From: an uncultured delta proteobacterium
GTDB lineage: Bacteria > Myxococcota > Myxococcia > Myxococcales > Myxococcaceae
Reading direction: 5' to 3'
Assembly (NCBI GenBank): GCA_963776345.1
Contig: CAVZMH010000020.1
Location: 1-64,000, forward strand
DNA length: 64,000 nt
Shown in pieces: positions 11,732 through 52,873 of this stretch. The notes beneath the pieces are model-generated. The model was not told where the DNA came from, did not search any database, and was given only the letters and a program-made list of their open reading frames with translations. Made by a program: the position numbers and the translations under genes. Positions within the stretch are counted from its first letter, which is position 1; every line of letters begins with the position of its first letter.

Positions 11732-12546
11732 CCGACTCGCTCGACACGTTGCTCGAGACCGCCGTCGAGGGCGCCCGCCGCGCCGGACGCGTCCTGGCCG
11801 AGCGCTTCCACCAGCCGCGCACCATCGCCTTCAAGAGCGGCATCGACCTGGTCACCGACGCCGACAAGGCGAGCGAGACGGTCCTCCTCGCCTGGCTCCG
11901 GGAGCGCCACCCGGACCACGCCATCCTCTCCGAGGAGAGCGGGGCCAGCGCCGGCTCGCGCTACCGGTGGATCATCGACCCGCTGGACGGGACCACCAAC
12001 TACGCGCACCAGCTGCCGCACTTCTCGGTGAGCATCGCGGTGGAGGGGGAGGGCGGGGTCCAGGCGGGCGTGGTCTACGACCCGATGCGCGACGAGCTGT
12101 TCACCGCGGTCCGCGGACGCGGGGCGATGCTGAACGGCCGGCCGATCCGGCCCAGCGCCACCGACCGGCTCGACCGCGCGCTCCTCTGCACCGGCTTCCC
12201 CTACGACGTCCGCGAGCACCCCGAGGGACCGGCGGGCCTCATCGCGCGGTTCCTGGGCGTGTCACAGGGAATCCGGCGCCTCGGCAGCGCCGCGCTGGAC
12301 CTGTCCTACGTCGCCTCCGGCCGGTACGACGGGTACTTCGAGTTCAACCTGAAGCCGTGGGACATCGCCGCGGGCGCGCTCATCGTCTCCGAGGCCGGGG
12401 GCGTCGTCGGCCGCATCGACGGCGCGCCGTACGACACCTCGGTGGTCGACGTGCTCTCGGCCGCGCCCGGCGTCGCTGCGCCGCTCCAGGACGAGTGCCG
12501 GCGGTTCCTGGGCGAGATCGGCTGGACGCCGAGACCCTTCGCCTGA
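11728..12546 (+). CDS. suhB: Inositol monophosphatase family protein
   Basis: DLVTDAD, EESG, WIIDPLDGTTNYAH, RRLGSAALDL and PWDIAAG. Confidence 0.9.
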   Translation: MTDSLDTLLETAVEGARRAGRVLAERFHQPRTIAFKSGIDLVTDADKASETVLLAWLRERHPDHAILSEESGASAGSRYRWIIDPLDGTTNYAHQLPHFSVSIAVEGEGGVQAGVVYDPMRDELFTAVRGRGAMLNGRPIRPSATDRLDRALLCTGFPYDVREHPEGPAGLIARFLGVSQGIRRLGSAALDLSYVASGRYDGYFEFNLKPWDIAAGALIVSEAGGVVGRIDGAPYDTSVVDVLSAAPGVAAPLQDECRRFLGEIGWTPRPFA

Positions 12547-12580
12547 GGGCTCCCCGCCCGCTCCCGCACCTCGGTGCGTA

Positions 12581-12880
12581 TCAACCGGGTCCTGCGGCTC
12601 GGATCGCCTCCAGGACGAGCGTTCGCGGGGGCACGCCCGCGAGACCGTAGAGGCGTCAACCCAGGCCGATACCGGTGGGAGGGTCGGGCTCGATGTCGAC
12701 GCCGTCCACGCGGACCGTGGGCGACCCGGGGAAGGCGAGGCGCGTTGCCTCCTCGAGCGACTCCACCACCACCGTCTCCACCTGCGCATCCAGCGAGTGC
12801 GCGCGGAGGATCTCCGCGACGAGCTCGGTGGTCCGGAGCCCGTGCCCGCAGCCTGGAGCCATGAGGATCTGGATCTTCAT
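12581..12880 (-). CDS. Small thioredoxin-fold protein (DUF2703 / 'DF'-type), probable selenoprotein with in-frame UGA at 12656-12658
   Basis: MKIQILMAPGCGHG...FPGSPTVRVDGVDIEPDPPTGIGLG-UGA-RLYGLAGVPPRTLVLEAIRAAGPG*. The post-UGA sequence matches the family tail C-R-L-Y...G-V-P. Confidence 0.8.
12623..12642 (-). promoter_or_regulatory. Putative bacterial SECIS element
   Basis: Minus-strand hairpin TCGCGGG-CGTGCC-CCCGCGA starting 13 nt after the UGA. The loop begins 20 nt from the UGA and has GU at positions 2-3. Confidence 0.6.
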
Positions 12881-12932
12881 CACGGGCAGGACGCTAGCAG
12901 CGACAGTCCCCGCGGAGGCCCGGCCGGGGGCC

Positions 12933-13064
12933 CGGAGCAATCGTGGACATAGCAACTTGGGGTCCGTACCCGGGACCCGCGTGCCCGGGCGCAAGTGTCC
13001 GAACTCATGAGGGCGGGCGCGCCGCCGGGCCGGGGGCGAAGTTGCTATGTCCACGATTGCTCCG
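12933..13064. repeat. Intergenic 26-bp perfect inverted repeat (REP/MITE-like)
   Basis: CGGAGCAATCGTGGACATAGCAACTT (12933-12958) and its exact reverse complement (13039-13064). Confidence 0.85.
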
Positions 13065-13098
13065 CGCCGCTCCCCGGAGCCACGAGCCGCGTCCGGGC

Positions 13099-13812
13099 TC
13101 AGGGGCTCGTGACCTTGGGGGTGAAGCGAGCGAGGTCGTCGATCCCCAGCGCCTTCTCGATCGACGTGACCTCGGCGACCATCTTCTCGAAGTCGCCGAG
13201 CGGGAGCGCCTTCTCCTTCTGCTCGAAGGTCTCCATCAGCGCCCGCAGCTCCTTCTCGGTGACCAGCTCGGCGAACGCCGGGAAGAGCACCGTGTCCTCG
13301 CGGGCGGAGTGTGGCTCGTACATCCGGATGAACTGGCGCATCGTCCCGGCGAGCTCGGCACGGCCGGACCGCTTCCCCAGCGCCGCCGGGGTGGCGAGCC
13401 GCAGGATGCCGGCGGTGAGCGTGCGCCCGGCCTGGTGCTGCTGGACGAGCACGTCGACCAGCCCGGTCATTCGCCCGGCCTTCCGGAAGCGGGGGAAGAT
13501 GAACTCCTCCTCGTCCCGCTCGTGGTAGTCCTCGATGAAGGCGCGGATGATGGTCGCCGCCTTCACCACGGGCTCGGCCTCCACCGCCTGCCGGGCGTCG
13601 ACCTGCCGGATGACCTCCCCGTAGACCAGCAGGACGCGCCGGAGCACCCCGTGCTCGCGCATCAGGTCCTCGGTCGGCGAGACCGCCTCCTCGGCCTCCT
13701 TCTGCTCCGCGGCGCTCGCCCGGAAGCCCGCGGCCGCCGCCAGCACCGCGCCGCCCACGCCCACCGCGTCCTTCAGGAAGCGCCGTCGGGCGCGCTCTGC
13801 TCGAGGGTCCAT
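13099..13812 (-). CDS. Tat-exported hemerythrin/HHE-domain protein
   Basis: RRRFLK twin-arginine signal, then EDLMREHGVL, YHERDEE, QQH and PHSAREDTVLFP. Confidence 0.85.
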   Translation of the reverse strand: MDPRAERARRRFLKDAVGVGGAVLAAAAGFRASAAEQKEAEEAVSPTEDLMREHGVLRRVLLVYGEVIRQVDARQAVEAEPVVKAATIIRAFIEDYHERDEEEFIFPRFRKAGRMTGLVDVLVQQHQAGRTLTAGILRLATPAALGKRSGRAELAGTMRQFIRMYEPHSAREDTVLFPAFAELVTEKELRALMETFEQKEKALPLGDFEKMVAEVTSIEKALGIDDLARFTPKVTSP

Positions 13813-36607: not shown

Positions 36608-36637
36608 ACAAGCTGTTGCTCCAGAGCTCTCTAGCAG

Positions 36638-36724
36638 CGGAGAGGGTGGGATTCGAACCCACGATACCCTTTCAGATATGCACGCGTTCCAGGCGTGTGC
36701 CTTCAACCGCTCGGCCACCTCTCC
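36638..36724 (-). tRNA. tRNA-Ser(GGA)
   Basis: Cloverleaf with anticodon arm CACGC-CTGGAAC-GCGTG, long variable arm and GTTCGAATC. No encoded CCA. Confidence 0.95.
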
Positions 36725-36731
36725 AGCCTTG

Positions 36732-36818
36732 CGGAGAGCGTAGGATTCGAACCTACGGTACCGTTGCCGGTACGCCTGATTTCGAGTCAGGTGCCTTCGA
36801 CCACTCGGCCAGCTCTCC
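36732..36818 (-). tRNA. tRNA-Ser(CGA)
   Basis: Anticodon arm CCTGA-CTCGAAA-TCAGG and long variable arm. No encoded CCA. Confidence 0.95.
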
Positions 36819-36831
36819 AGCGATTCAGTTG

Positions 36832-37296
36832 TCAGTCTTCCGGGGTCGTCCGCAAGCCCTGGAAGAAACGGGTCAGTCGCGCCGCGCACTCGGCCTCCAG
36901 GACGCCCGAGCGCACCGTGAGCCGGTGATTGTGGGGCAAGGCGTTCAGGTCGAAGAGCCCTCCCAGCGCGCCCGCCTTGGGACTGGGAGCCCCGAAGACC
37001 ACCCGGTCCACCCGCGCCTGCAGTGCCGCGCCGACGCAGAGCGAGCACGGCTCCAGGGTGACGACCAGCGAGACCCCGCTCAGCCGCCACCGGTCCAGCC
37101 GCCGGGCAGCCTCGGACAGCGCCCGCATCTCGGCGTGGGCGAAGGGATCCCGGTCGGTCTCGCGGCGGTTGGACCCGCGTCCGACCACGGCGCCCTCGAA
37201 CACCGCCACCGCGCCGACCGGCACCTCGCCGAGCGCCCCGGCCTGGTCGGCGAGCTCGAGCGCCTCGCGCATGAAACGTTCGTCGGCGTCGTCCAT
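36832..37296 (-). CDS. tadA: tRNA adenosine(34) deaminase
   Basis: GEVPVGAV, HAE, TLEPCSLC and PKAGA...FF. Confidence 0.93.
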   Translation of the reverse strand: MDDADERFMREALELADQAGALGEVPVGAVAVFEGAVVGRGSNRRETDRDPFAHAEMRALSEAARRLDRWRLSGVSLVVTLEPCSLCVGAALQARVDRVVFGAPSPKAGALGGLFDLNALPHNHRLTVRSGVLEAECAARLTRFFQGLRTTPED

Positions 37297-37313
37297 GGAG
37301 CGGAGCGGAAAAA

Positions 37314-37390
37314 TGGCGCGCCCTAGAGGATTTGAACCTCTGGCCTTCGGATTCGTAGTCCGACGCTCTATCCAACTGAGCTAAGGGCGC
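37314..37390 (-). tRNA. tRNA-Arg(ACG)
   Basis: GCGCCCTTAGCTCAGTTGGATAGAGC..., anticodon arm TCGGA-CTACGAA-TCCGA and an encoded CCA. Confidence 0.96.
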
Positions 37391-37496
37391 GTGCGAAGTA
37401 CCCGCAGTTGCACCGTTTTCAAAGACCGAAACAGCGAGCGAGGCGTCCTATCCTCTCGTCTCCCACAGTGCAAGGAGCGCCAGGGACAGGGCGAAG

Positions 37497-37583
37497 CGGA
37501 GAGAGAGGGATTCGAACCCTCGATACCCTTTCGAGTATGCAGGTTTAGCAAACCTGTGCCTTCAGCCTCTCGGCCATCTCTCC
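37497..37583 (-). tRNA. tRNA-Ser(GCT)
   Basis: Anticodon arm CAGGT-TTGCTAA-ACCTG and long variable arm. No encoded CCA. Confidence 0.95.
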
Positions 37584-37613
37584 TCTCTAGAAGCGCTCAA
37601 AGAACAACGGCGA

Positions 37614-37700
37614 CGGAGGAAGTAGGATTCGAACCTACGAAGGGCGTGAACCCTTGGCGGTTTTCAAGACCGCTGCCTTCAGCCGCTCGGCCATTCCTCC
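37614..37700 (-). tRNA. tRNA-Ser(TGA)
   Basis: Anticodon arm GCGGT-CTTGAAA-ACCGC and long variable arm. No encoded CCA. Confidence 0.95.
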
Positions 37701-52457: not shown

Positions 52458-52590
52458 GCCGGGCCGAGCTGTGGCGAGCTGCGAGGTTCTGACGGGCGCG
52501 GGCGCGGCGCGGGTTCGAGCGGTGCCGATCTGTCCGACGCTGATCGGCCCCGAGCGGAGGCGGTTTCGAGGGCGTGCTCGCCCGGAGCCC

Positions 52591-52618
52591 GAAGTTGCTA
52601 TGTCCACGATTGCTCCGG
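52591..52618 (+). repeat. Third copy of the 26-bp intergenic repeat
   Basis: GAAGTTGCTATGTCCACGATTGCTCCGG, containing the same 26-mer as 13039-13064. Confidence 0.85.
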
Positions 52619-52873
52619 ACCTGCTCGCCTCGGGGGAGGCTTCCCCGGCGCGCAAGTCCGGCGTGGCTCGATCAGCCACACTCCCTGCCCCGGGCCGGCC
52701 GGGTGCTCGCGCGTGTTCGGTCCGGGCGCCCGCTGTCCGCGGCGCCGCTCTACGGCTGCCGCTCGTGCCGTTCGCCCGGAAGGCAGACCCCGTCAGGGTC
52801 TGGCGCCGCCTCGAAGGTGATCGCCCCGCAGTGACAGCGTCCGTCGATCCGCATTCTGTGTTCGCTCAGAGCC

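Follow-up and report, generated by a model that had tools for sequence, protein, structure and literature searches.

The closest described relative of the gene reported here is hypothetical protein DF of Desulfosediminicola flagellatus, a product of the deep-Sep approach (Xiao & Zhang, 2025; PMC12013277); the available text of that study gives DF from one organism, with no UGA-containing homologues elsewhere and no conserved domain. In the accessible part of PMC13188914, the NCBIfam model NF049942 is tied to this deep-Sep protein and listed with one selenocysteine (Sec) and no motif, and DF has been on record as a selenoprotein family since 2025 (NF049942). Other small thioredoxin-like selenoproteins carry Sec within a short motif, as tabulated in the same source: UxxC in SaoT, CxU in Sec.1 and UxC in Sec.2. 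A further thioredoxin-fold family, DUF2703 (PF10865), lies in an ars cluster of Rhodococcus and is described, in the portion of PMC6514093 available, with a CxxC motif. Our literature search found no functional study of the DF family and no report of Sec at the alignment column that concerns us below (column 75), which the NCBIfam comment, deep-Sep Fig. 2, BSepDB Table S2 or Haft & Tolstoy (2025) may record.

The gene lies on the minus strand of the 64,000-nucleotide stretch of DNA that was analysed (hereafter, the window). It runs from an ATG at 12880 through 74 codons to an in-frame UGA at codon 75 (UGA75), past which the frame stays open for 24 further codons (RLYGLAGVPPRTLVLEAIRAAGPG) until the next stop, again a UGA (Table 1). 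The public gene call ends at residue 74, and an identical 74-residue product (P0200) is present in the public collection. The original prediction had instead read through the UGA to give a 99-residue selenoprotein; its coordinates, reading frame and hairpin position all proved exact on re-check, and its central claim is borne out by the comparative evidence set out below. From the sequences compared, we consider it nearly certain that the apparent stop codon is read as selenocysteine and that this is a mis-annotated selenoprotein gene.

Table 1. Features of the DF-family gene, in window coordinates.
Feature	Position	Strand	Basis
DF-family thioredoxin-fold selenoprotein gene, 99 residues, stop codon included	12581..12880	-	NF049942, 83.7 bits, residues 3–92 on profile 1–96
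Cys11, position of the first Cys of thioredoxin CxxC, no second Cys at +3	12848..12850	-	
G-S-P-T motif, predicted cis-proline loop of the thioredoxin fold	12716..12727	-	column conservation
In-frame UGA, codon 75, inferred Sec, motif G-L-G-U-R-L-Y	12656..12658	-	UGA in orthologues, Cys in relatives
SECIS-type hairpin	12623..12642	-	folding, and 17 unvarying columns across the 18 orthologues
True stop codon, 24 codons past the Sec codon	12581..12583	-	orthologue ends at a similar distance

The window gene belongs to a known family rather than to a new kind of system, and its Sec site differs from that of the published example. Both proteins match NF049942 and have the same two Cys/Sec columns, and in both Sec is predicted from a Cys/UGA pair with a hairpin downstream; in the published DF sequence (Table S2 of PMC12013277, aligned here by eye) U occupies the Cys11 column and the chain stops right before the C-R-x-Y column, whereas the window protein has Cys at position 11 and Sec at column 75. 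This difference marks a variant and not exclusion from NF049942, as Cys forms fall within the model and there are U/U forms. Because the published sequence ends exactly at the second column and double-UGA forms exist (see below), the alignment makes it probable that this sequence is a double selenoprotein truncated at the second of its UGA codons. SaoT, Sec.1 and Sec.2 are likewise small thioredoxin-like proteins with Sec, but theirs sits within a short N-terminal motif, whereas the window DF has Sec 64 residues away from its presumed Cys partner. Small archaeal and bacterial thioredoxins (the MJ0307 and MTH895/ArsE type, Pfam Thioredoxin_3; PDB 1fo5, 1nho, 1ilo) share the short core and have their first Cys and cis-proline loop in register with those of the window protein, which differs in having no CxxC, in a loop of ~19 residues bearing a second Cys/Sec, and in falling under all of their cut-offs. 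Several DF relatives match DUF2703 weakly (2 of 36 above cut-off), and an arsenic-linked context is common to both families; the window protein itself has no such match, nor does it have the CxxC described there.

With Sec scored as Cys, the read-through product reaches 83.7 bits against NF049942 (“DF family (seleno)protein”, cut-off 70), spanning the whole 96-position model; the 74-residue form scores 68.1 bits, under the cut-off. A search with the single protein returned distant Cys forms only (6 genome and 5 metagenome loci), and the close orthologues discussed below were obtained from whole-genome family searches. At E ≤0.001 a profile search yielded 5608 representatives, and among the best 150 of these the UGA column is Cys in 145, the Cys11 column is Cys in 149, Pro54 is present in all 150, and Gly52 and Ser53 are each present in 149. 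Full-length homologues, in which the original prediction had asked for Cys opposite the UGA, do have it, and the family has only two conserved Cys/Sec columns, either of which may be Sec. Truncation at the UGA is widespread in the public record: 31 of 47 protein matches end exactly before this column, the other 16 having Cys (13), Ser (1), Gly (1) or Asp (1) there. In one cluster at 90% identity, P0016 and P0210 have Gly at the Sec column together with a full tail, while P0211 is cut at that position; the cluster looks like either a Sec-loss allele or a sequencing error.

It is barely credible that UGA75 stems from faulty assembly, or that a variant genetic code assigns it to Cys or Trp, and both readings are already largely refuted by the DNA of relatives and by UGA stop usage: the Gly and same tail of P0016 and P0210 do indicate that single-base changes occur at this column, but contigs from independent metagenomes (four runs of four studies, which bear on sequence and not on expression) all keep the UGA, with no other base (and so no TGC or TGT) at 12656–12658, UGA terminates 3260 of the 4571 coding-like ORFs of the genome, and the tRNA for Sec is the only UCA-anticodon tRNA found there by ARAGORN. 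None of the sequencing runs listed with this sequence is an RNA run.

We then weighed the reading in which UGA75 is a real stop, the gene being a 74-residue fragment or pseudogene and the tail and hairpin relics or chance. Taken alone, the local sequence features are weak: the genome is 72% GC and such features are common in it, hence an open tail and a hairpin prove little by themselves. Among the 3260 coding-like ORFs of the genome that end in UGA, 2460 are followed by an open tail of at least 24 codons and 1123 by a hairpin when the SECIS rule is set loosely; a hairpin as strict as the one here, with a perfect stem of 7 bp, the same spacing and an early loop G, follows 39 (1.2%). The tail is, moreover, not coding-like in its codon usage, scoring −0.4 (about zero) in a codon-usage model vs 19.5 for the upstream part, and the public gene calls end where a real stop would place them. 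It is the comparative evidence that lifts UGA75 above chance. Of 401 genomes in the same phylum, 60 contain a match to DF, and a single in-frame TGA interrupts it in 20: the genome of the window plus 19 others, all from one other family (f7). Eighteen full-length orthologues were aligned (two partial matches, both with the same hairpin core, were left out; pairwise gene likeness 63–92%), and the UGA column is TGA in 18/18, whereas the real stops vary (12 TGA, 6 TAG). These stops lie 18–34 codons past the UGA, 24–27 codons in 15 of the 18. Identity of the other 17 orthologues to the window protein is 73% past the UGA vs 57% before it, from which, at the level of aligned sequence, the tail appears to be under selection. 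A frozen set of synonymous sites is confined to the hairpin (see below), and the 74-residue fragment would both lose the last helix of the predicted fold and fall under the NF049942 cut-off. Taken with these observations, we judge a real stop to be very improbable. One orthologue (L067, G371) has a tail of 18 codons closed by a TAG, past which the frame plausibly continues; it may have been truncated recently. In the other 207 genomes of the window's own family we found 11 matches, none with an internal stop.

The hairpin behind UGA75 has a perfect 7-bp stem and a 6-nt loop; it starts 13 nt past the UGA, with G then U at loop positions 2–3 and the loop 20 nt past the UGA. It was recovered in minimum free energy and centroid folds alike at all four folded lengths, with a folding z-score of −2.6 for the 59-nt piece but between −0.15 and −0.5 at the three remaining lengths, and with energies for the 40-nt piece from −10.1 (centroid) to −14.8 kcal/mol. 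The bSECISearch model for bacterial SECIS elements, as given in the accessible part of PMC13188914, specifies a loop of 3–9 nt, a stem of 4–16 bp, a loop 16–37 nt from the UGA, and a G within the first two loop positions with a minimum free energy of at most −7.5 kcal/mol; compared by hand, the window hairpin lies within the four constraints of that source. Across the 18 orthologues, the hairpin region comprises 17 consecutive invariant columns. At codons 81–85, which form the hairpin, 5/5 fourfold-degenerate sites are invariant vs 0/35 comparable sites elsewhere (Fisher p 1.5e-6, a descriptive value only, as neither the sites nor the related sequences are independent). Pairing is kept in 98.4% of alignment cells, with one compensatory and two G-U changes; covariation over these 18 rows does not exceed that of shuffled alignments (65 of 500 shuffles reach the observed level), because five of the seven pairs never vary. 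Rfam returned nothing meaningful within window positions 12400–13200. The SECIS-like element of the original prediction thus both fits the published constraints and has codons frozen at synonymous sites, a pattern indicating that the hairpin is under selection at the sequence level.

The genome was predicted to carry selA, selB, selC and selD, and all four were found, each above cut-off (selA on contig C16, selB on C21, selD on C20 and the Sec tRNA on C15). The selD gene (G000:C20:109736-110665) itself has an in-frame UGA. selA is present in all 38 tested genomes with the UGA form of DF (20/20 in the window's phylum, 18/18 in a second phylum), a weak control given that it is also common in genomes with Cys forms (25/34). 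Three further ORFs of the genome are probable selenoproteins, judged by eye from their motifs: two rhodanese-like and one TlpA/AhpC-like (at C2 near 57738, C15 near 401696 and C15 near 34867, all on the minus strand), each with a UGA at what resembles a catalytic Cys site, followed by a hairpin. A genome-wide screen for UGA codons followed by hairpins yielded 103 candidates, mostly noise, and cannot serve as a selenoproteome since it missed both the window DF gene and selD.

To what fold the two Cys/Sec columns belong is suggested by an AlphaFold2 model (117-sequence alignment, Cys placed at position 75), which has a pLDDT of 95.4, a pTM of 0.87 and a thioredoxin-like order of elements. Its closest structural matches are thioredoxins (Z 8.0–9.3, rmsd 2.4–3.0 Å over 79–82 residues), and a profile match to the archaeal thioredoxin 1fo5 has an E of 3.8e-7. 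The predicted structure shows a four-stranded core, an N-terminal Cys before helix 1 and a cis-proline loop, the last of which we take, from known thioredoxin folds, to be formed by the G-S-P-T motif. Cys11 directly precedes helix 13–27 of the model and aligns with the first Cys of the 1fo5 thioredoxin motif. The classical CxxC or CxxS motif of thioredoxins and glutaredoxins is absent from the window protein, which reads C-G-H-G, and CxxC occurs in none of the 243 aligned family sequences that have Cys11. Residues 63–81 form an extra, family-specific loop of about 19 residues that carries U-R-x-Y.

In thioredoxins, the substrate Cys docks at the residue before the cis-proline. Given this, and isolated β-bridges in the model at residues 53, 75, 78 and 81 that are consistent with residue 75 lying on residue 53, Sec75 is predicted to sit in the substrate groove facing Cys11, and we consider it very likely, on the strength of the model, that Cys11 and Sec75 form one site. 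A pairing of Sec with the single N-terminal Cys had been proposed at the outset; conservation of both columns, the lack of CxxC and the model bridges lend it indirect support, and the contact itself is a prediction. In a mutual-information contact analysis of 247 sequences, columns that never vary swamped the result, which is uninformative on a Cys11–Sec75 contact.

UGA-bearing forms extend beyond the window's phylum. A second phylum, sampled as 401 genomes around that of a Deltaproteobacteria MAG, gave 28 TGA-bearing matches; we examined 18 of these loci, all with TGA at column 75 and each with a different hairpin or weak fold behind it, bringing the UGA-bearing genomes examined to 38 in two phyla (20 and 18, respectively). 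Three of the 18 loci have TGA at the Cys11 column as well. These double-UGA genes (L110, L111 and L112, of G826, G547 and G671) lie directly upstream of acr3, and G671 holds two double-UGA DF copies.

In a tree of 79 rows, from which 11 loci had been dropped as duplicates or fragments, the window protein groups with 17 proteins of family f7 (support 100/99), and the window gene was likely acquired laterally. The tree needs five changes for Sec at column 75, yet a single Sec clade is not rejected (p-AU 0.256) and we therefore do not claim several origins. The Pro that follows Cys11 is lost in 30/32 Cys/Sec forms vs 1/39 Cys/Cys forms; with two independent pairs on well-supported branches (p 0.5), a link between this loss and Sec75 is not established.

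The gene is flanked by an inositol monophosphatase gene and by a gene for a hemerythrin-domain protein with a Tat signal. The slot between these flanks (12547–13098) is hypervariable: five congeners keep the flanks (the hemerythrin-side match is missing in two), and their slots hold unrelated small ORFs, mostly for small membrane proteins. Just upstream of the gene, at 12920–13077, lies a palindromic element of ~135–160 bp with long terminal inverted repeats, whose 23-nt end motif has 11 exact copies on five contigs of the genome, often as inverted pairs ~140 bp apart; its sequence resembles that of a MITE or an element of REP type. A lone arm of the same element, with no partner, is found at 52583–52621 of the window. 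Elsewhere in the window, four tRNA-Ser genes and one tRNA-Arg gene cluster at 36637–37700.

Bringing these elements together, we propose a mechanism whose steps differ in strength. The first step has strong support at the level of sequence: SelB with Sec-tRNA would bind the hairpin 13 nt past UGA75 and the ribosome would insert Sec; when selenium is lacking, a 74-residue fragment without the last helix would result. The product is predicted to fold like a thioredoxin, with Cys11 placed where the attacking Cys normally sits but with no CxxC partner, loop 63–81 docking on the strand before the cis-proline so as to bring Sec75 next to Cys11. The loop would then act as a built-in partner, the protein cycling between a selenenyl-sulfide and a selenolate/thiol state. 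We lean, modestly, towards this description of the window protein as a DF-family thioredoxin-fold selenoprotein that acts as a small selenol/thiol oxidoreductase via its Cys11–Sec75 pair, a reading drawn from sequence and model; given Sec, we slightly favour a redox role over pure metal binding. Redox partners do occur among family fusions: an ArsC-type (LMWPc) reductase is the fusion partner at 9 of 44 non-Sec loci, and a second thioredoxin or AhpC/TlpA-type domain is present in 4 of the 36 longest representatives.

A second reading of the same site accepts the selenoprotein but has Cys11/Sec75 bind soft metal(loid) ions such as As(III), Hg(II) or Cu(I), to be handed on or sequestered, making the protein a metallochaperone and not an oxidoreductase. 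ArsD, a thioredoxin-fold As(III) chaperone, provides a precedent. The commonest family fusions, to mercury transporters or lyases, fit metal binding no less well than they fit redox chemistry: 12 of the 36 longest representatives carry Mer-domain fusions, comprising eight with MerT (four of them also with HMA), three with MerB or its HTH domain and one with a weak MerC match. Among the non-Sec loci, 23 of 44 are fused or adjacent to mer/ars genes (one locus was not scanned): 14 are fusions (the nine ArsC-type cases above and five with MerC) and another nine adjoin a merT, merTP or merR-type gene. The MerC fusions and these last nine speak for metal binding too. The 18 Sec loci of the second phylum include four adjoining acr3 (three full-length and over cut-off, one a partial SBF match), two adjoining a MerB-like lyase and one adjoining arsM. 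The two lyase ORFs, MerB/SaoL-like and upstream of Sec-form DF genes (L102:2-538 and L108:717-1265), score below the family cut-offs and might themselves be cut at a UGA.

Against metal binding as the sole function, none of the 20 loci of the window's clade adjoins a mer or ars gene in a scan of 160 of the called neighbours, five of them the window's (an ars cluster lies ~3 kb away in 1 of 19 relatives), and the genome of the window (98% complete) yielded no MerT. It has acr3 at another site. No Sec form examined is fused or adjacent to MerT or MerC (a count over relatives that are not independent), and Sec usually marks redox catalysis, according to the available text of PMC13188914. On balance, a metallochaperone strikes us as the less probable reading, with a minor but substantial share of our expectation, and a Cys11–Sec75 oxidoreductase as the preferred one. 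Relatives suggest that the wider DF family serves arsenic and mercury handling; the window's clade would have left the mer/ars operons, its proteins probably serving on their own as reductants under metal(loid) or oxidative stress. Besides histidine-kinase domains, no neighbour family is common to more than 3 of the 20 loci, and with no conserved neighbours in the clade no substrate can be named for it.

Several consequences follow for the family. A systematic truncation is corrected, affecting 31 of 47 protein matches as well as the public call for the window gene; DF, published from a single sequence with Sec, now spans at least 38 genomes of two phyla; and the commonest Sec site shifts to column 75, unlike in the published example. 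More tentatively, and at somewhat less than even confidence, DF may represent a distinct class of thioredoxin fold in which CxxC is replaced by a long-range pair, an attacking Cys and a loop-borne Cys/Sec that resembles a tethered substrate. The loop would then be the main Sec site and the founding sequence a cut double selenoprotein, with Cys/Cys forms in mer operons and Sec forms in ars operons or alone. Cys/Cys, Cys/Sec and Sec/Sec versions of DF (the last diselenide-capable in this reading) occur naturally, and such a series on a 100-residue scaffold offers a convenient test bed for why organisms use selenocysteine.
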